From sequence record KC801932: a stretch of 64,000 bases of DNA. One strand, given 5' to 3'. Positions 1,407 through 37,795 of the stretch are shown piece by piece; positions within the stretch are counted from its first letter, which is position 1; every line of letters starts with the position of its first letter. The stretch comes from Escherichia phage Lw1. The translations under genes were made by a program, and so were the position numbers. The notes under the pieces were generated by a model. It saw only the letters and a program-made list of their open reading frames with translations. It made no database searches and had not been told where the DNA came from.

Positions 1407-2270
1407 ATGGCATATCAAACAGGCAAAAAATTAATTGACGTGGGGCAGATCGGCAACCCGTCAACTGGTGACCCGCTGTATGACGGCGGTGTAAAACTTA
1501 ACGAAATCATCACCAACGTGTATAACGCGTTTGGTGATGTGCGTTTACTGACTGCAAACGATGGTGTGGGTACAATGCTGCTCCACGCTACCGGATATTT
1601 TCAGAAGTTACCACGTACCTATTATTCAGGCAATCCGATCGAACTGGGTTCCTTGCATGATATGGATACGTCAACAGGACCGATCACGGTTGTTCTTCCT
1701 TCTGGCAAAGCGGGTGAAGGATGTTATTTCATAAATAGTAACGGTAGTATTTCTGTTGACCGTCCTCTGGTGTTCCGTCCTCAAGTTGGCGATAATATCA
1801 AAGGTGTCCAGGATCAGCTTTACATCACCTCTCCATACACCCAGATTAAATTGTGGTGTGTTAAGAAAGAGGGTTCTGTAACCACATGGGATTATTCAGT
1901 CGAATCAATGTTCGGCTCTAAAACAATGCCAGTGGATACTACCAAACTAATTCTGAAAGCATCACCGACCGCAATTCCTTTATTCGGTTACACTGAATTC
2001 AGCGGGGCGAAATTGCTCGTATATGCTGAAAGTATGACAGGAACAGTCAATAAAATGGCTGAAATCCTTCTCGCGGTAGACCGTATTGCTAAAGGCGTGT
2101 ATTCAACAGAATATGCTGTTCTGAAAAATAGCGATGACGATATGTACACCCTTACTTTCACTGTCGGCGCTGGTGATGTGGTATATGCAAACGTACAATC
2201 CAAAGTCGAAGATCGCATTAAGTTTTCGATTAAAGCGATTGACACCATTAAATCAGGGATCGCAGCATGA
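1407..2270 (+). CDS. 9: baseplate wedge / long-tail-fibre socket protein gp9
   Basis: 287 aa; KKLIDVGQIGNPSTGD..., CYFINSNGSISV and SVESMFG match recalled T4 gp9; synteny. Confidence 0.85.
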   Translation: MAYQTGKKLIDVGQIGNPSTGDPLYDGGVKLNEIITNVYNAFGDVRLLTANDGVGTMLLHATGYFQKLPRTYYSGNPIELGSLHDMDTSTGPITVVLPSGKAGEGCYFINSNGSISVDRPLVFRPQVGDNIKGVQDQLYITSPYTQIKLWCVKKEGSVTTWDYSVESMFGSKTMPVDTTKLILKASPTAIPLFGYTEFSGAKLLVYAESMTGTVNKMAEILLAVDRIAKGVYSTEYAVLKNSDDDMYTLTFTVGAGDVVYANVQSKVEDRIKFSIKAIDTIKSGIAA

Positions 2271-4084
2271 AACAAGAAATTATTATAGGTAACGTGGTTG
2301 ATGACGGCGCTGGCGATTACTTACGCCGTGGTGGTCAAAAAACAAACGCGAACTTTACCGAATTATATGAAAAGCTGGGTGACGGGGAAATCCCTCACCC
2401 AGCGGGTGCGTGGAAAACGCATTCCGCTCCTACATTGAACCCTATTTTTGGTGATTCATGGGCGCTGAATACCAGTAACAACCGTATTACTGTAAACCTC
2501 CCTAAAGGGGGCGTAAGCGATTATAACAAGGTTATTCGTCTGCGTGATGTTTGGAGTAAATGGGCGGTTAACAACGTGCGTATCGTTCCGGCAACGGGAG
2601 ACACCATCAAAGGTTCACCAACTTACAAAGAACTGTACAAAGATTTCATGGATGTTGAACTGGTTTATTGTGCTCCTGGGCGTTGGGAATACGTCGAGAA
2701 CAAACAGGTTGACAAAATAACAACTTCGGATCTGGCTACCGTAGCGAAAGAAACCTATATCGCAACTCAGGGACAGACAGACTTCCCGAATGTGTTCGGT
2801 CCTGGCAACATGTACAACGTTCGTGCTCTCGAAGTCTACTATCGTGGTAACTTGCTGTACATCGACGATAAGAACGGCTTTAATGAAGCAAACAGTGATT
2901 ACGGTTCGCCTGGGGCAACTGCGGGGCAACTCGTAGAACTGGATGGAACCAACATACGCCTTAAACGTCCCTGTAACGCTGGTGACACGCTTCAATTTGT
3001 CACCTATATGGATGGTATAGCAACATGGCGTTCGACGTATGAAGCGCATACAATGCGCGTATACAACACTGGAGACACTGAACTTGTGAGCGTACCTGGT
3101 GAAATCTGGGTTGGCGATCTGGCTAACAAGAAAGAATTCACCACTGCTGAATTTGGTATCAGTTCCCGTGTGTTGATTAACCCGAATTCATTCGAACTGC
3201 TGCTGAACGGTCGTCAGCTTGTAAAAGCAGGTGATGCGGATCTTCCTACGTTTGTTTGTGAAGGTGCGGAAGGTTATGATGAAGATAGCTGTTTGGCTAA
3301 CTCCGGTTTATGGGTTCCGTCTGGACAGGATTACAGTCTAATCTTTGTTAACTCTATTGTGACTGGGATTAAGTTTCATCAGGCACTGGAAACCCGCGAT
3401 GTGGTAACAATCCGTTGGTTCAATAACGATATCGGAACCGTAATGGAATGGGACGGCGTAGGCGGTATTAAAGAGCATACGGATAAACTGTATCTGAATA
3501 ACGAAGACGAATTGACTTTGGTTAATCAGATTGAATATACAGACTACAACAACCCGTCACAAAAAACAATGCGTAAGGTTGCAGATCCTTTCGTTGGTCG
3601 TCTGTTGGATTTGCAAGCGTTTTTCGATGTGATTCACCCTATTGGGACAATTTACGAAAACGCACACAACGACGCAAACCCAGGCGATTATATGGGATTT
3701 GGTATCTGGACACGATATGCAGAAGGGATGTTTATTGCTGGTTGGACTACCGATGCAGCAGATAGCGATTTTGGGCTGAACAATAACGATCTGGATGGTT
3801 CCGGTCAACCTACACACACATCAGGTGGTACTGGTGGTGAACGCGGCTACGAAATCAAACCGATCAACGTTCCACAAATCGAATCTACCGATAAAGTTCT
3901 GATTAAGGACGATAACGGGATCATTATCATTGGTGGTTGTCAGGTTGACCCAGATGCAACAGGACCAGGATACACTAAATACCGTGAGGATGTATTGAAA
4001 GTAAATCAGGGTAATACTACTCCTGATAAGCTGAAAACGCTCCCTCCGTATATTACTGCACATCGCTGGATAAGGGTAGCATAA
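2267..4084 (+). CDS. 10: baseplate wedge protein gp10
   Basis: 605 aa; N-terminus IGNVVDDGAGDYLRRGG and C-terminus YTKYRED...RWIRVA match recalled T4 gp10; start overlaps gp9 stop. Confidence 0.85.
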   Translation: MKQEIIIGNVVDDGAGDYLRRGGQKTNANFTELYEKLGDGEIPHPAGAWKTHSAPTLNPIFGDSWALNTSNNRITVNLPKGGVSDYNKVIRLRDVWSKWAVNNVRIVPATGDTIKGSPTYKELYKDFMDVELVYCAPGRWEYVENKQVDKITTSDLATVAKETYIATQGQTDFPNVFGPGNMYNVRALEVYYRGNLLYIDDKNGFNEANSDYGSPGATAGQLVELDGTNIRLKRPCNAGDTLQFVTYMDGIATWRSTYEAHTMRVYNTGDTELVSVPGEIWVGDLANKKEFTTAEFGISSRVLINPNSFELLLNGRQLVKAGDADLPTFVCEGAEGYDEDSCLANSGLWVPSGQDYSLIFVNSIVTGIKFHQALETRDVVTIRWFNNDIGTVMEWDGVGGIKEHTDKLYLNNEDELTLVNQIEYTDYNNPSQKTMRKVADPFVGRLLDLQAFFDVIHPIGTIYENAHNDANPGDYMGFGIWTRYAEGMFIAGWTTDAADSDFGLNNNDLDGSGQPTHTSGGTGGERGYEIKPINVPQIESTDKVLIKDDNGIIIIGGCQVDPDATGPGYTKYREDVLKVNQGNTTPDKLKTLPPYITAHRWIRVA

Positions 4085-4746
4085 TGACACAATTTATTTC
4101 AAAGACAAGGGAGGGGGCGAAAGTCCCTTCTCGTGAAGCAGACTTTTTGCAATATGAAATGGGTACGAAAGAACCCCTTATTGGTGGTAAACGTACCATC
4201 GGCGGTGCAAACGTTGATCAGCTTCGCAAAGGGATAGACTATCCCAACGTACAATCAGCAATCGATGACCTGTATTCTCTGACTCAACAGATCCCGATTA
4301 ACGGGGTTATCATGATGACAGAAGACAGTCCACCGACCGCTGTTCAGCAGGTAGAAACAATCACGTTTGATGGAACTGTACAAAATCCAGATCCAGACCA
4401 AACGAAAGCAACCGTTCATGTTTATGGCTTTCCGTTTGTATTCGATAACACAACGAACGCCTCTACGGTATGCGAAACAGTATTCAACAAGTTTACTGAA
4501 TTTGTCAACGACGAAAAATATTTCGATCTGGTTACGCGTAAAGGATTGAACGGGGAAATTCTGGAAGTTCGTTTTATTGATGCGGTTCCACATCCGGTAA
4601 CTAACGCAACAGAAAACGGGATCTCTATGGTTGGTGTAATCGACGTACAGGCGCGTTCTGGTTACGGTACGTGGTCGAAACTGGGTGAGATTGATCTTGC
4701 TGTAACTCCACCTGTTCCGATTTATTATTTCAAACGTATTGCGTAA
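4084..4746 (+). CDS. 11: baseplate wedge protein gp11
   Basis: 220 aa; C-terminal GYGTWSKLG...YYFKRIA resembles T4 gp11 C-terminus; synteny. Confidence 0.8.
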   Translation: MTQFISKTREGAKVPSREADFLQYEMGTKEPLIGGKRTIGGANVDQLRKGIDYPNVQSAIDDLYSLTQQIPINGVIMMTEDSPPTAVQQVETITFDGTVQNPDPDQTKATVHVYGFPFVFDNTTNASTVCETVFNKFTEFVNDEKYFDLVTRKGLNGEILEVRFIDAVPHPVTNATENGISMVGVIDVQARSGYGTWSKLGEIDLAVTPPVPIYYFKRIA

Positions 4747-4755
4747 GGATAACCA

Positions 4756-6147
4756 ATGAGTAACAACACAATTAACCACGTAAGCGATGCGTCAGTTTAC
4801 GTGACTTTCGATCCGGCTGGTACGCAATGGCCTTCGACGTTTACCAACGTACAGCAAGCCCTAGCCTCTATAGGCTCATGGGCGCGTGAAGATGTGGGTT
4901 TGCCTAACGCTGCCCCTGGTGTGCGTGGTATCGCTGCTATTGCTACCGAGGCGATGATTGACGCAGGTACTGACACCGAAACGATCGTTACTCCAGCGCT
5001 GTTGGCATATCGTTTACAGAATCCTCATGCGTCACAAACTGTATGGGGTTATACCCGTTATGCGACCGATGCAGAAGCAACCACAATCACTAACGATTTG
5101 GTTTCTGTAACTCCGCGTTCTGTTGATGTTATTTTCAACACCAGACAAGCAACAGAAACTGTATGGGGTTCTGCGAAACTGTCAACTACAGCACAAGCAA
5201 CATCAGGTACTGATGACACAACCGCAATGACTCCATTGAAGGTTAAACAAGCGATCTCCGCTCTGGTTCCGGTTCAATCTAACGCAACGGAAAGTTCGTT
5301 CGGTTTGGTTCAGTTGGCTACGGTTGCAGAAGTCCGCGCAGGTACTATCCGCGATGGATTTGCAATTTCACCATATACGTTTATTCGTCTGAATGCAACA
5401 GAATCCGATCTAGGTATTATTCGAATAGCTTCACAGGGTGAAGTCAACACAGGCGCTGATGATACAAAAGCTGTTACCCCGCTGAAACTGGCTAACTTGA
5501 AAGGTTCTGGTAGCGCGTTTGGTTTGGTTAAATTATCAACAGATGTAAACACAGGGCTGGCGAACACAGCGCTTTCTGCTGGTGCTAACGTGGTTCCGAG
5601 CAACCGTGATAGTGCAATTACTGGTGGTGCTCTGTATCAGGGTTCAGTTACTGGTGCTAATAAATACCAAACACATAGCGACGTTGAAGCAAATATTCCT
5701 ATTGGGTGTATGATGCTCGCGGCATTCAACTCAGATTACGGAAACCTGTTTATCGCAAACGGTCGCGCGATGAATAGAAACGCAAACCCAGAACTATTTG
5801 CACGTATTGGCTACGCATATGGCGGTAGTGGTGATATTTTCAACCTCCCAGATATGCGCGGGGTTGCTGCTCGTGGTTTCGATGCGGGACGTGGGTTAGA
5901 TCCTGGTCGCGGGTTTGGTACATATCAGGCCGATGCGTTTGCGTATCACGAACATAACCTACAGATGATTTTGCTGAACGGCGGTAATATTCCATCAAGT
6001 CAGGCTGTTTATGAACTGAAATGGGCCAAGAAAAATGACCAACGAATCTATGATTTAGATCCGAACTATAGCAAAGCTAAGGGTGTTGGTGCTAACGAAA
6101 CGCGAATGAAAAACGTTGCGGTCAACTATGTAATTCGAGTACGATAA
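4756..6147 (+). CDS. 12: short tail fibre protein gp12
   Basis: 463 aa; repeated A-x-x-G-T/A-DDT-x-A-x-TP fibre repeats; C-terminus NVAVNYVIRVR resembles gp12/gp37 C-terminal receptor-binding region; synteny. Confidence 0.8.
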   Translation: MSNNTINHVSDASVYVTFDPAGTQWPSTFTNVQQALASIGSWAREDVGLPNAAPGVRGIAAIATEAMIDAGTDTETIVTPALLAYRLQNPHASQTVWGYTRYATDAEATTITNDLVSVTPRSVDVIFNTRQATETVWGSAKLSTTAQATSGTDDTTAMTPLKVKQAISALVPVQSNATESSFGLVQLATVAEVRAGTIRDGFAISPYTFIRLNATESDLGIIRIASQGEVNTGADDTKAVTPLKLANLKGSGSAFGLVKLSTDVNTGLANTALSAGANVVPSNRDSAITGGALYQGSVTGANKYQTHSDVEANIPIGCMMLAAFNSDYGNLFIANGRAMNRNANPELFARIGYAYGGSGDIFNLPDMRGVAARGFDAGRGLDPGRGFGTYQADAFAYHEHNLQMILLNGGNIPSSQAVYELKWAKKNDQRIYDLDPNYSKAKGVGANETRMKNVAVNYVIRVR

Positions 6148-6159
6148 AGGGGTTAATCC

Positions 6160-30743: not shown

Positions 30744-30773
30744 TTGACATCGTTTTGCTGATGGATTTATAGT
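30744..30773 (+). promoter_or_regulatory. sigma70-like promoter TTGACA-N18-TATAGT
   Basis: Hexamers at 30744-30749 and 30768-30773, in the divergent intergenic region upstream of ORF 30824. Confidence 0.45.
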
Positions 30774-30823: not shown

Positions 30824-31717
30824 ATGAAACTTGAATTAAACCGCTTCATCAAAGCCGCTGCTGCTGGCGACCAGTCAAAATATACATCACGCCGCAACCA
30901 CACATTGTCAAACGATTTCGCTGACCTGCTTGGGTTCAAGCGCTGGCATACTCCGGTTATGCGTCCCGACTGCGATCCTAAATGGGATTACTTTCGTTGG
31001 AGTATTCCCAAACATGCCATTGTGAAAAAGATCCGTGTGATGTCTTTCCGTTTTCTGTATCCTAACTGTATCATCGAAATCGCAAAAGAACGAGATATCA
31101 CCCTCCCTAATGGTTGGAAACTTGCTGACCTGATGGAAACACTGATCCAGATGCGTAGAGAATACAAAGCTGGATACATCCGTTCCTTTGATAAGTTGGG
31201 TGATTACTCAGACAGCGATAATTACAAAGAATGGCAAATGATCGCAAAGTACCTGTTAAACAGCATATGGATTATTATTTGCGGCAAAGGTTCTGCGATC
31301 AACCTGGGAGGTCATGAAATTATTGCCCGTGCTCGCGAAAAGGTTTGTGATGCGGTAAACAAAATCATTTCTTCAGGTGGCGTTGTTCTGCATGTAAACG
31401 TTGACGAAATCGTGTATTACGGCGAACAGGTGGAAGTTGATAATGTCCATCATGAAAAACACTGGAAAGCTATTTTTACTGGTGGCGGTGCTGCATGGGG
31501 TGATAATATGATAACAAGTGGCCCCATTCCAACGATTAAATTTGACCTTGATGACTGGGAACCGCAAAACAACGGTATTCGTTCGGTCGAGGAACAACGC
31601 GCAATGGCTGAACGTATGGCTGCAACGCGAATCAAACGTTTCACCAATGAAATCATAGAGTATATGAACCGCACAAAAGAAGACGTGTTGAAAGATGTTG
31701 ACTTGTCCGGTGAATAA
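30824..31717 (+). CDS. hypothetical protein
   Basis: 297 aa ORF with GGTGA upstream; no recognised family. Confidence 0.5.
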   Translation: MKLELNRFIKAAAAGDQSKYTSRRNHTLSNDFADLLGFKRWHTPVMRPDCDPKWDYFRWSIPKHAIVKKIRVMSFRFLYPNCIIEIAKERDITLPNGWKLADLMETLIQMRREYKAGYIRSFDKLGDYSDSDNYKEWQMIAKYLLNSIWIIICGKGSAINLGGHEIIARAREKVCDAVNKIISSGGVVLHVNVDEIVYYGEQVEVDNVHHEKHWKAIFTGGGAAWGDNMITSGPIPTIKFDLDDWEPQNNGIRSVEEQRAMAERMAATRIKRFTNEIIEYMNRTKEDVLKDVDLSGE

Positions 31718-32899: not shown

Positions 32900-32908
32900 G
32901 GGGCTGAC

Positions 32909-33439
32909 ATGAGTCGTAGACAAAATATGGAACGTTGGACTGGTGTTGTAACCAGCAGTGTTAAACCAGTTACCGCTGTAGTGAAAGAAGTTGTTGAAGA
33001 AACTCCGGTTAAAACTCAGATGGTTATTTCTCTGAGTGATGAAGAGTTAGAGCATCGTCGCCGTGCGAATCAAATTGAATTCGATCTGCGTATCGCTCGT
33101 TCATACAACAGCAAAAATGATGATGCTCGTAGCCGGAATCTGCAATTTGCTCTTACGTTGAGTGATTGGACCTCTTTAATGAGTCAACCAACTTGCTTGT
33201 ATTCTGGGAAGGTGTTTAGTTCTCGTGGAGATAGCCCGAATTCTCGAACGATGGAACGAATTAACCCGATGCTGGGTTACACTCCAGAAAATACGATCGC
33301 AGTGACAAAAGCCGCTAACAGTGAAAAATCATCACTTGATGCGTTTATGAAGGGTTCGGTAATCCTTCCAGAAGTAAAACTGAAACTGTTACGCAAAGCC
33401 GCGTATCAAATTGAAAAACAATTGAAAATCAAAGGTTAA
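32909..33439 (+). CDS. hypothetical protein with degenerate HNH-like motif
   Basis: 176 aa; C-LYSG...ERINP..GY..EN...V.KAAN.EK aligns to the HNH scaffold (CxxCG...HHIxP..GG...N....C..CN..K) but lacks the catalytic His and most zinc ligands. Confidence 0.4.
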   Translation: MSRRQNMERWTGVVTSSVKPVTAVVKEVVEETPVKTQMVISLSDEELEHRRRANQIEFDLRIARSYNSKNDDARSRNLQFALTLSDWTSLMSQPTCLYSGKVFSSRGDSPNSRTMERINPMLGYTPENTIAVTKAANSEKSSLDAFMKGSVILPEVKLKLLRKAAYQIEKQLKIKG

Positions 33440-33443
33440 TATT

Positions 33444-34490
33444 ATGTTTGTGAAATATTCTTCTCTTACTAACCATTACGAAGGTAAGTTCATTAATGGC
33501 GTGATCATGAATGGCCTTACTGGTGGTGTGTGGTGTGCTCGTGAAAAGATACACGGTACAAACTTTAGTCTGATTACTTCGGACGGTGAAAAAGTCATTC
33601 CAGCAAAACGTAGCGGTGAAATCCTTCCTACTGAACAGTTTTACGGTTGTGAACCTGTCGTTGCAAAATATTCTAATGCTGTGCGCGAGTTGTGGGAAAC
33701 CCTCGCAAATACCTGTGAATATAAGGAATACGCTGATATCGGTTCTCTGGTTGTACAGGTATACGGCGAATTTGCGGGGCGTGGTGTTCAAAAAGATGTT
33801 GATTACGGAGAAAAAGATTTCTATGTATTCGATATCCGTGTGAATGATAAATTTTTACCAGATAACATTGTTGCATCGGCTGCTGTTTGTGTTGGTTTGA
33901 AAATGGCTCCATTGCTGGCATATGGTACGTTTGAAGAGATCCGCGAACTGCCTATCACGTTTGATTCTGTTGTCAACCTGGCTAATTCCGGCGCAATTGT
34001 TGCGCAAAATGGCGTTGAACCTGCGTTCAAAAACTTCATGACTCTGAAAGATGGTGAAGGTGAAAACATCGCGGAAGGTTTCGTGATGAAGCCCGTCGAA
34101 CCTGCTTTCATGCCGAACGGTGAACGCGTTGCGATCAAATGCAAAACGACGAAGTTCACAGAGAAGAAGAACAAGCAAGCGAACCGCTTCAATGCTCCTG
34201 TTGAACTGTCTGAAAATGATAAAGTTAAACTGGATGTGTTTACCTGTTACCTGAACGAAAACCGCGTGAAAAATGTTTTGTCTAAAATTGACAGCGCAAA
34301 TCTCACTGCAAAAGATTTCGGTCGCGTAATGGGCCTGACGGTACAGGATGCGCTGGAAGAAATCGAACGTAATTATGGCCCGTTCCTGGAACAGTTCGAG
34401 AATCCAACGCTGGCGAAGAAAACCTTCACTAACGAAGCGTCAAATCTGGTTCGTGAGAACTGGGGCGCAATCCTGAACAATGAATTTTAA
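33444..34490 (+). CDS. rnlB: RNA ligase 2
   Basis: 348 aa; strong similarity to T4 Rnl2 as recalled (AREKIHGTNFSL, KDFYVFDI, RVAIKCK.SKF.EKK, MGLTVQD.LEE). Confidence 0.88.
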   Translation: MFVKYSSLTNHYEGKFINGVIMNGLTGGVWCAREKIHGTNFSLITSDGEKVIPAKRSGEILPTEQFYGCEPVVAKYSNAVRELWETLANTCEYKEYADIGSLVVQVYGEFAGRGVQKDVDYGEKDFYVFDIRVNDKFLPDNIVASAAVCVGLKMAPLLAYGTFEEIRELPITFDSVVNLANSGAIVAQNGVEPAFKNFMTLKDGEGENIAEGFVMKPVEPAFMPNGERVAIKCKTTKFTEKKNKQANRFNAPVELSENDKVKLDVFTCYLNENRVKNVLSKIDSANLTAKDFGRVMGLTVQDALEEIERNYGPFLEQFENPTLAKKTFTNEASNLVRENWGAILNNEF

Positions 34491-35064
34491 AACGGTTCTG
34501 GACAACGCGAAGACGGCTACCCTGATCGGTAGCCGTGAACCCCCCGAACGTATCGCAAACCTCGCAATCAAGATCGGACGCGCTTTAAGTGATCGGGAAA
34601 TATTCGCTTACTCTGGTGGTGCTCCAGGAATGGATAGTCATTTTTTATTTGATTACTCACCAGAAAGACGGCGTATAATTCTTCCTGAGAACGGTTTTAA
34701 CGGGTTGTACTCAAATGGTAAGGATATCATCGACTATACAGAATACGACACGTACAAAGCCGCTGACGAAGCGAGAAAGGTAGCTGGACACTTCGACAAC
34801 CAAAACGAATGGACACAGCGCCGATATGCTCGAAATTCCATGCAGGTGCTAACCGAACATCTGGATACGCCTACGGATTTTGTGTTATTCTGGGCTGTTG
34901 AAAAAGAGTTTTGTGTGAAAGGCGGTACTGCGATCGCAGTAAGATTGGCCCGACTGTATGGCATACCCTGTTTCAATCTCTGGAATGAACGGGTATTAAA
35001 TGAAGTTTGCGACACTTTGGGGATTAATACTAAACCTCCAACTTTGGATTTTCTCTGGTGCTAA
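34480..35064 (+). CDS. DprA/SLOG-like Rossmann-fold protein
   Basis: 194 aa; YSGGAPGMDSHF resembles the DprA/Smf SG-x-A-x-GID-x-x-H nucleotide-binding loop; start overlaps the rnlB stop. Confidence 0.45.
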   Translation: MNFKTVLDNAKTATLIGSREPPERIANLAIKIGRALSDREIFAYSGGAPGMDSHFLFDYSPERRRIILPENGFNGLYSNGKDIIDYTEYDTYKAADEARKVAGHFDNQNEWTQRRYARNSMQVLTEHLDTPTDFVLFWAVEKEFCVKGGTAIAVRLARLYGIPCFNLWNERVLNEVCDTLGINTKPPTLDFLWC

Positions 35065-35130
35065 CTCCTGAACAATCACGTAATTACGAACGCCTCGCAG
35101 TTGAAGAGGCATTAAAAAAGGCGGAATATA

Positions 35131-35559
35131 ATGGTAGAAATCAATGGGATCGGGGTAGTCGGTGTAACCCCCGCAAATCGCAGTCAAAAGGATGATCCGC
35201 GCTGTGGGCGTAGTCCAACACTGGCAGAACGTGCGCGTAAGCTGGTAGACGACATGAACGCGAAGATGGTCGAAGAGTCGCGGAACGATATCACGGCGTA
35301 TGTTCTGAAATATGCGACAAAACAATCATATACATTTGATATGAAACGTTTTGTTGGTGCTAATTTAGGTCAAGAATGCACACAAAAAGCATACGATGAT
35401 CTGGGTGAATGGCTGAAATCAGAAGGGTTGACTTTTGATACTATGGCGAACCGTCTGAATGCGTATTCGAATTATCCGAGTGGAATCCGTTCTCGTCGTA
35501 TTCAGACGAGTAATGATCGCGACGTGTACAGCGAATTCACTTACTTCATCACTTGGTAA
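35131..35559 (+). CDS. hypothetical protein
   Basis: 142 aa ORF; no recognised family. Confidence 0.5.
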   Translation: MVEINGIGVVGVTPANRSQKDDPRCGRSPTLAERARKLVDDMNAKMVEESRNDITAYVLKYATKQSYTFDMKRFVGANLGQECTQKAYDDLGEWLKSEGLTFDTMANRLNAYSNYPSGIRSRRIQTSNDRDVYSEFTYFITW

Positions 35560-35578
35560 AAATAATTCGAAATAGTTG

Positions 35579-35606
35579 TTGACGGGAGTTGTGAGTGTGG
35601 TAATAT
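35579..35606 (+). promoter_or_regulatory. sigma70-like promoter TTGACG-N16-TAATAT with flanking inverted repeat
   Basis: Hexamers at 35579-35584 and 35601-35606; GGGAG (35584-35588) and CTCCC (35609-35613) bracket the -10. Confidence 0.5.
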
Positions 35607-36361: not shown

Positions 36362-37795
36362 ATGCAAAAATTTACTGAACTGAATAGCCTGATCACCTCA
36401 ACTGATTCCTACAAAGTGTCTCACTGGATGCAGTATCCACAAGGCACTGATGCAACGATGTTCTATATCGAATCTCGTGGTGGTAAATTTGATGAAGTCG
36501 TAACTGCTGGCGTTAACTACGTTGCGCGGGTACTGGCTGAACCTGTTACCATGAAACAAGTTGAGTTGGCGCGGGTGCTTTACCGTAAGCACTTCGGGAA
36601 AGAAATTTTCAACTATGAAGGATGGAAAGAGATCGCAGAACTGGGTTACACCCCTGTGATTTTCCGTTCTATTCCAGAAGGTACAGTTGTTCCGGTTAAA
36701 AACGCCGTTGCGACCGTGTTCTCTGAGAATCAATTCTCCTGGTTGGCTGGTTGGTTGGAAACAATGACGATTCGCGGTATCTGGTATCCGTCATCTGTTG
36801 CGACTCTATCCCGTGAGTGTAAAAAGGTTCTGGCTCAGTACCTGAATATGACTTCTGACCTGACTGGCGAAGCATATAATGTTACACTGGGTACACGTCT
36901 GCATGACTTTGGGGCGCGGGGCGCGACCTCTGCTGAGTCTGCGGGTATTGGTGGGCTGGCGCACCTTTACAACTTCGTTGGAACTGATACCGTCGAAGGG
37001 ATGATTATGGCAATCAGCCTGTTTGCGGATCATCAGACTCTGTTTGATGAACTGGAAAATGTCGAAGCCGCTGGCATTTCGATTCCTGCTCGCGAACACT
37101 CAACGACGATTTCCTACGGTAAAGAAAACGAAGAAGACGCATACAAAAACAGCATCAAAATGTTCGGTACTGGGTTCTACGCTTGTGTGTATGACTCATG
37201 GGACTATAAAGCCGCTGTTGATCGCATTGCTGAGTATAAAGAGAAAATCATTGCTGCGGGTGGTACTCTGGTAGTTCGTCCAGATTCAGGGGATATGATC
37301 GATAACATCATGTATACCCTTCGTAAATTGGCGCAAATTTTCGGATACACCGTAAACAGCAAAGGTTATAAAGTTCTGCATAACGCAGTTCGTATCATCC
37401 AGGGCGACGAGATCCACGGGCCTGAGACAATCAACCGTGTGTTAAGCTGGATGGAAGCGAACAAGTGGTCAAGCGAGAATATCGCGTTTGGTATGGGTGG
37501 AGGTTTGCTGCAAGAAGTTACCCGCGATACTCAAAAGTATGCCGAAAAGCTGTGCGCTATCCGTGTGAATGGTAAGTGGACAGGCGTTTACAAATGTCCG
37601 AAAGGTTCTGAGTGGAAAAAGAGTAAAAAAGGTTTGCTGATGACCATCACTAACGGTATGGAATTCAAGACCATTGATATTCTGGAAGACTCAATTCCTG
37701 ACGGTTGGTTCGATGCGATGGTGACTTATTACGATAATGGTTACTTGAACACCGACGACACTTTAGGGGAAATTCGTGAGCGTAGCCGGATTTAA
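36362..37795 (+). CDS. nadV: nicotinamide phosphoribosyltransferase (NAMPT / NadV)
   Basis: 477 aa; diagnostic blocks SYKVSHW, HDFGARG, VRPDSGD, IQGD, IAFGMGGGLLQ shared with eukaryotic and bacterial NAMPT. Confidence 0.88.
   Translation: MQKFTELNSLITSTDSYKVSHWMQYPQGTDATMFYIESRGGKFDEVVTAGVNYVARVLAEPVTMKQVELARVLYRKHFGKEIFNYEGWKEIAELGYTPVIFRSIPEGTVVPVKNAVATVFSENQFSWLAGWLETMTIRGIWYPSSVATLSRECKKVLAQYLNMTSDLTGEAYNVTLGTRLHDFGARGATSAESAGIGGLAHLYNFVGTDTVEGMIMAISLFADHQTLFDELENVEAAGISIPAREHSTTISYGKENEEDAYKNSIKMFGTGFYACVYDSWDYKAAVDRIAEYKEKIIAAGGTLVVRPDSGDMIDNIMYTLRKLAQIFGYTVNSKGYKVLHNAVRIIQGDEIHGPETINRVLSWMEANKWSSENIAFGMGGGLLQEVTRDTQKYAEKLCAIRVNGKWTGVYKCPKGSEWKKSKKGLLMTITNGMEFKTIDILEDSIPDGWFDAMVTYYDNGYLNTDDTLGEIRERSRI

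Follow-up and report, generated by a model that had tools for sequence, protein, structure and literature searches.

The Rossmann domain of bacterial DprA/Smf proteins, as studied in Helicobacter pylori DprA (HpDprA), carries two signatures for binding single-stranded DNA (ssDNA), G-S/T/A-R and F/L/Y-x-x-R-N/D, whereas LOG proteins are marked by PGGxGTxxE (PMC3950713). For viral SLOG domains fused to Macro, NADAR or DUF4326 domains, the predicted activity is sensing or degradation of ADP-ribose derivatives (PMC9503650). NADAR (T4 gp30.3, AdfN) overcomes DarTG1 and strips ADP-ribose from DNA guanine (PMC11825919, PMC11125620). Here we describe two adjacent genes of Escherichia phage Lw1 (record KC801932): rnlB, which encodes RNA ligase 2 (Rnl2), and a gene for a SLOG protein of the phage ‘DprA-like’ family. 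The sequence analyzed, 64,000 nucleotides (nt) long, is called the window below. The ligase of the window has the same pair of domains, a nucleotidyltransferase and the Rnl2 C-terminal domain, as the product of T4 rnlB (24.1); T4-type Rnl2 is not known to have an assigned biological role. We propose, with about as much confidence as doubt, that the SLOG product would be a stand-alone nucleotide-pocket protein in phage NAD+/ADP-ribose counter-defence, and that its gene lies next to rnlB through inherited gene order.

Fold and pocket of the SLOG protein

The pair and its junction occupy the following positions:

33444..34490, + strand: rnlB (RNA ligase 2), an open reading frame (ORF) of 348 amino acids (aa)
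34480..35064, + strand: SLOG gene (phage ‘DprA-like’ family, stand-alone), an ORF of 194 aa
34480..34490, + strand: start-stop overlap of rnlB and the SLOG gene, ATGAATTTTAA, read from the sequence

The 194-aa protein is firmly assigned to the Rossmannoid domains of the SLOG superfamily because its conserved motifs, its AlphaFold2 model, and the Foldseek and profile matches all point there. DprA, LOG, YpsA, the Moco carrier protein and the sensor domain of ThsA all have this fold. It matches PHROG 768 (‘DprA-like DNA recombination-mediator protein’) over its full length (7e-62). In an alignment of 48 homologues, with identity down to 23%, G17-S18-R19, S45-G46-G47, G50, D52, R118 and G148-G149-T150 are invariant, and N119 and Q122 are nearly so. 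The conserved pocket consists of G17-S18-R19, S45-G46-G47-x-x-G50-x-D52, R118-N119-x-x-Q122 and G148-G149-T150. The AlphaFold2 model built from this alignment is a single alpha/beta domain (mean pLDDT 95.8, pTM 0.90). Foldseek placed nine HpDprA chains at the top of its matches in the PDB (E 1e-6 to 1e-5), followed by ShosA, TM1055, DprA of R. palustris, the Moco carrier protein, LOG enzymes and the SLOG domain of ThsA. Searching PDB sequences with the single sequence (phmmer) returned only noise and the family profile was needed; it matched HpDprA at 2.6e-6, with IGSRE...SGGAPGAD aligned to IGTRR...SGGALGVD. A reading of this DNA made from the sequence alone had likened the SGGAPGMDSHF loop to DprA and SLOG proteins. 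The likeness is real: the loop spans residues 45–55 and aligns with SGGALGVD of HpDprA.

DprA is the nearest SLOG branch, by a modest margin. HpDprA is the best structural and profile match, at an identity of approximately 17–24%, and its Rossmann domain (4LJK/4LJR) shares with the SLOG protein three elements lining the pocket for the base: the G-S/T-R motif, the SGGAxGxD loop and the R-N pair of the helix motif (PMC3950713). The first ssDNA-binding signature is present as G17-S18-R19, aligned with G-T-R of HpDprA. The second retains its R-N core, but it reads R115-Y116-A117-R118-N119 where the family consensus is L-x-x-R-N: the hydrophobic position three residues before R-N is an arginine, and a tyrosine follows one residue later. 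As a whole the pocket (GSR, SGGAxGxD, RNxxQ, GGT) matches the DprA pocket that grips one ssDNA nucleotide. The protein differs from DprA in having GGT instead of SGS and in the insert that joins strand 4 to the R-N helix. The match to the Pfam DprA family PF02481 (E 1.4e-4) covers residues 7–54 only and scores 21.6 bits, under the gathering score of 29.6; that to TIGR00732 scores 16.4 bits against a cut-off of 191. No second Pfam domain was matched, and neither a SAM nor a DML1 (winged-helix) domain is present. Because the scores fall below these cut-offs and both accessory domains are lacking, the protein is not a canonical DprA; it is classed here, from its sequence, as a DprA-like SLOG domain outside the DprA family proper.

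These comparisons bear on the main rival explanation, in which the protein works as DprA does: its Rossmann domain would bind ssDNA as a dimer and serve as an extra ssDNA binder or recombination mediator, aiding UvsX or host RecA. We regard this as possible rather than probable. DprA tops both the profile and the structure matches, the G-S-R motif and the R-N core of the second motif are in place (PMC3950713), and a phage DprA/Smf copy has been suggested to be an extra ssDNA binder (Iyer et al., 2021; PMC7824862). The sub-threshold Pfam and TIGR00732 scores and the missing SAM and DML1 domains, however, speak against it, as do the mildly acidic isoelectric point of the window protein (pI 5.7; family range 4.9 to 9.7) and the fact that these phages already encode UvsY.

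A LOG-type enzyme, that is, a nucleotide phosphoribohydrolase freeing the base from a nucleoside monophosphate, is very improbable. The LOG signature PGGxGTxxE (PMC3950713) is absent, and in its place stands V146-K147-G148-G149-T150-A-I-A, in which no acidic residue follows GGT; the Pfam family Lysine_decarbox (PF03641) gave no match at E<=0.1. No profile match to the YpsA family (PF06908) was obtained, and neither the SLOG domain of ThsA, the 3'cADPR sensor of Thoeris, nor the LOG phosphoribohydrolases show a specific sequence match to the protein. We give least credence to mimicry of the DprA-like antitoxin ShosA, by which the SLOG protein would neutralize the ShosTA defence. The protein does match, weakly, the PADLOC ShosA model (E 6.6e-5, 20 bits, residues 8–53) and the ShosA structure 8zva, and ShosA neutralizes ShosT without binding it (PMC12961424). 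But the match is limited to the N-terminal motif shared across the superfamily, the SAM domain that the ShosA study suggested is needed for stability is absent, and the family is spread far more widely than expected of one specific countermeasure.

By tblastn, the SLOG gene is found in 1349 of 50,697 phage records, in T4-like phages of many hosts, Pakpunavirus, rV5- and phi92-like phages, Vibrio T5-like phages, N4-like phages and jumbo phages. When 1.84 billion cluster representatives were searched with hmmsearch, 6957 matched at E<=1e-3 and 3148 passed the stricter limit of E<=1e-30; most are stand-alone proteins of 165–200 aa. Among accessory proteins of large virulent phages, this family is one of the more widespread. 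PHROG 768 apparently corresponds to the viral SLOG domains described by Iyer, Burroughs, Anantharaman and Aravind (PMC9503650, PMC7824862), and may be what the published label ‘YpsA-like clade’ denotes. The window protein shares with PHROG 768 all invariant residues, the size and the stand-alone form; unlike the published viral SLOG fusions, it has no NADAR, Macro or DUF4326 partner. In the RefSeq relatives GAP161, IME-CF2 and Miller the gene is already annotated ‘DprA-like’. Both genes belong to recognized families whose names are found in RefSeq relatives, so that novelty is low and the finding matters little as it stands.

The annotation of relatives varies. In several public genomes the start of the SLOG gene is placed later, which gives a product of 143–144 aa that has lost GSR and SGGAPGMD (for example, Miller 5724-6158); a 193–195-aa form is kept in 24 close homologues. 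An ‘FHA domain’ label appears in a note on the Miller gene and in UPEC03, and the Pantoea phage Phynn copy is labelled ‘RNA ligase’. We rejected the FHA assignment, for which Pfam gives no support.

Domain fusions and distant neighbourhoods

Domain fusion is the clearest functional signal for the SLOG family. We scanned every protein of 230 aa or more in the top 150 family hits, 38 in total; the fused proteins match the family profile at approximately 1e-55. NADAR is fused to the SLOG domain in six of them, DUF4326 in four, plus P0035, DUF7831 in two and Macro in one; an RNA ligase or recombinase domain was found in none of the 38. Linkage of the same kind is seen between neighbouring genes. 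In Vibrio phage VPMCC14 a NADAR gene lies immediately 3' of the SLOG gene with a 4-nt overlap, and in Xanthomonas phage XacN1 the gene order is NADAR-x-NUDIX-SLOG; about 7–9 records of cultured phages show an ADP-ribose-type linkage. Two metagenomic proteins (P0065 and P0066; 1488 and 1475 aa) combine the SLOG domain with YAcAr and LDcluster4 SLOG domains and a C-terminal NADAR, and look polyvalent.

NADAR, Macro, DUF4326 and NUDIX are the only recurrent fusion or neighbour partners of the family, and for this reason we favour an ADP-ribose-related role, at roughly balanced confidence. The SLOG protein would bind, and perhaps process, an ADP-ribose-type nucleotide moiety, which might be free or attached to nucleic acid. 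It would act early in infection, within the NAD+/ADP-ribose counter-defence of the phage. The SLOG gene and rnlB would lie on a common transcript, probably with coupled translation, and would not form an obligate functional pair. The database name ‘DprA-like’ may mislead, since the fusion partners point towards an NAD+/ADP-ribose arms race and away from recombination. The earlier suggestion that the protein handles a nucleotide-derived signal is compatible with the fusions to NADAR, Macro and DUF4326, but the fusion link is independent of rnlB.

Several points weigh against the ADP-ribose reading. We know of no experimentally characterized member of the phage ‘DprA-like’ family. The recurrent linkage to ADP-ribose domains holds at the level of the family only: the window protein stands alone, and only about 7% of the best 150 representatives have an ADP-ribose-linked fusion. 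Among 150 neighbour proteins from 80 distant loci, NADAR and Macro fall outside the 25 commonest families. Plain ssDNA binding would be equally compatible with the sequence, because the pocket motifs are the ones tied to ssDNA in the DprA study (PMC3950713). Finally, a shared role keeps some plausibility from the tight start-stop overlap with rnlB, seen in three T4-like lineages.

The distant loci were sampled from IMG/VR. Pfam families among the 150 neighbour proteins include Dda-like helicases (nine), Clp protease (six), ribonucleotide reductase (five) and DnaB (three), with two each of DNA polymerase, ThyX, dTMP kinase and NUDIX. The setting is one of general replication and nucleotide metabolism with no dominant partner. 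The frequency of Dda-like helicase, DnaB, ribonucleotide reductase and DNA polymerase genes suits the DprA-like alternative. So does the T5-like Vibrio phage phi 3 (2849-5525), in which a SLOG homologue lies between ORF fragments of an NAD-dependent DNA ligase, in a replication module. The fusions, in contrast, tell against that alternative: none with a recombination domain was found in the scan, while those with ADP-ribose hydrolase-type domains recur.

A gene for NadV, a nicotinamide phosphoribosyltransferase, lies 1.3 kb 3' of the SLOG gene in the window and about 1.2 kb from a homologue in Pseudomonas phage PaP1. Proximity to NadV was rejected as a general link of the SLOG family, as NadV occurs at 0 of the 80 IMG/VR loci.

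RNA ligase 2 and the origin of the gene pair

The product of rnlB scores 256.2 bits against TIGR02307, above the equivalog cut-off of 197.15. It contains both Pfam domains expected from T4 Rnl2, RNA_ligase (PF09414, 1.2e-18) and T4_Rnl2_C (PF18043, 2.4e-14), matches phrog_548 at 2e-112 and is approximately 46% identical to T4 rnlB. Motif I reads E34-K35-I-H-G-T-N40, with the lysine of KxHGxN, the residue that becomes adenylylated, present; K35 is the active-site lysine of T4 Rnl2. Further motifs are EGFVMKP and AIKCK. The gene encodes an ordinary, true T4-type RNA ligase 2 with no notable difference from that of T4, in agreement with the sequence-only reading, which had called it unmistakable.

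That reading also held that the rnlB stop overlaps the start of the 194-aa ORF. It does: at ATGAATTTTAA the SLOG ATG lies 8 nt ahead of the rnlB TAA, and the overlap is 11 nt. GAP161 and Miller share this exact junction; Jiaodavirus has TAATG there, and S16 has an overlap of 22 nt. In the window lineage there is no Shine-Dalgarno-like purine run 5–12 nt 5' of the SLOG start (aatcctgaaca), whereas the SLOG genes of JSE and PS2, which do not directly follow rnlB, have a GGAGG or GGAG of their own. The two genes would share a transcript, probably with coupled translation. Such coupling is ordinary, since 17 of the 63 same-strand neighbour pairs in the window have overlapping ORFs, and the overlap with rnlB is unremarkable in this setting.

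To ask how often the genes stand together, both proteins were joined end to end and searched as one query against the phage records; 80% coverage in one place was taken as genes side by side, and the resulting counts are approximate. Either gene occurs in 2095 records. The two are adjacent in 427, of which every listed example is T4-like, and matched at two separate places in up to 113. About 746 records, T4, T2 and RB32 among them, have Rnl2 only, and at least about 809 have the SLOG gene only. Besides JSE, one other such record is listed, Ec_Makalu_003: its near-identical SLOG match is in a single place, and of the fused query it covers the SLOG portion only. In many phages, each gene does without the other. 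Gene orders at the loci inspected are as follows:

SmallBear (of the Klebsiella phage group here called Jiaodavirus) and S16 (Gelderlandvirus): inh-hoc-(small ORFs)-rnlB-SLOG, then convergent gene 24
PS2 (Muldoonvirus): three small ORFs separate rnlB from the SLOG gene
JSE (Krischvirus): the SLOG gene adjoins gene 24; no rnlB in the locus shown
T4: rnlB alone
GAP161 (close relative of the window): 23-24-uvsY, uvsW, inh-hoc-...-srd-rnlB-SLOG-...-nadV-dam-nrdC-49

In every T4-like locus inspected that has the pair, it closes the inh-hoc...rnlB block. In T4 rnlB abuts gene 24, whereas in the window lineage the block runs on into other early genes. Among the distant homologues, Rnl2 was found within 6 kb of the SLOG gene at 0 of the 80 IMG/VR loci, and ligases were not enriched among the neighbours there. 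Because the pair is confined to part of the T4-like phages and ends the same block at every locus inspected that has it, and either gene stands alone elsewhere, the adjacency is best read as inherited Straboviridae gene order with independent loss of either partner. In the records examined, adjacency was seen within this one inherited block, and Rnl2 and SLOG do not appear to form a conserved unit beyond it.

These data decide how much weight to give a functional pair, in which the SLOG protein would act on a blocked nick or RNA end, recognizing it or clearing it of, for example, an ADP-ribose or nucleotide adduct, and pass it to Rnl2 to be sealed. Such a pair is unlikely. The 427 records with adjacent genes speak for it, together with the start-stop overlap in three T4-like lineages and the missing Shine-Dalgarno sequence in that of the window; SLOG identity between the overlapping lineages is only about 40%, and phi 3 offers a second association with a nick-sealing enzyme. 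Against this, all cases end one inherited block, the single-gene records are numerous on both sides, T4 has Rnl2 without SLOG and the JSE locus has SLOG alone. PS2 places three ORFs between the genes, the distant loci and the scanned long homologues are without Rnl2 and ligase fusions, respectively, and overlapping neighbours are common in the window. Conservation of the pair as a unit in T4-like phages, raised as a check of the sequence-only reading, is thus only partly upheld: adjacency is frequent there, but as one inherited block from which either gene is often missing and which has no counterpart at the distant loci. The joint role with the ligase that had been drawn from the coupling of the genes finds no support from any evidence in the analysis; the pairing is lineage-restricted synteny.

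A narrower form of the repair idea is less likely still. In T4-like lineages with both genes, a nick or RNA end might carry an ADP-ribose-type adduct or cap, left for example by a host DarT-like or RNA-ADP-ribosylating toxin, which the SLOG protein would recognize or remove before Rnl2 seals the break. If this were true, T4 RNA ligase 2 would gain its long-missing role, in counter-defence repair. As it stands, the neighbouring SLOG gene is at most a weak lead to the role of T4-type Rnl2.

Returning to inherited order as the preferred explanation of the adjacency, the end of the block differs between lineages. In GAP161 (1975-4145) uvsY directly follows gene 24 and the inh-hoc...rnlB block is on the strand of gene 24; in JSE, SmallBear, S16 and PS2 the block and gene 24 are convergent. 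The GAP161 arrangement thus points to a rearrangement, relative to these four loci, at the block end. We also considered whether the two genes had moved together from one genomic context to another and rejected this, as the GAP161 pair still stands behind inh and hoc, like those of Jiaodavirus and S16.

Flanking genes and promoters

The window belongs to an RB43/RB16-like T4-type phage, Pseudotevenvirus-like. Its DNA at 32900-35600 is 82–87% identical to that of RB43/RB16-like T4-type phages of Citrobacter, Cronobacter, Enterobacter and Klebsiella, for example Xman, Miller and GAP161 (genus Pseudotevenvirus). The following features surround the pair:

30744..30773, + strand: sigma-70-like promoter match, TTGACA-18-TATAGT, a candidate early promoter (11/12 consensus positions)
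32909-33439, + strand: srd-like gene directly 5' of rnlB (phrog_4592 ‘decoy of host sigma70’, 3e-76)
35131-35559, + strand: 142-aa ORF 3' of the SLOG gene (phrog_7671, 4e-75)
36362-37795, + strand: NadV-type nicotinamide phosphoribosyltransferase (NF006629, 460 bits)

The sigma-70-like match precedes an ORF at 30824 and the run of + strand genes that includes srd, rnlB and the SLOG gene; the number of such sites in the region is not above that in shuffled sequence. The late-promoter-like TATAAATA occurs nine times in the window against 2.7 expected, clustered before structural genes, and none is found on the + strand between 28282 and 49332. A gene run in this setting, with a srd-like decoy and NadV, would fit early expression beside host-takeover and counter-defence genes, although the promoter sites are matches to a consensus only. 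Both the early-gene setting and the nearness of NadV count in favour of the ADP-ribose reading.

The srd-like gene also matches HNH endonuclease families (phrog_3118, 3e-21). The 142-aa ORF belongs to a family of unknown function that is retained in RB16/RB43-like relatives, and it has a faint match to PADLOC PD-T4-2_B (E 0.011).

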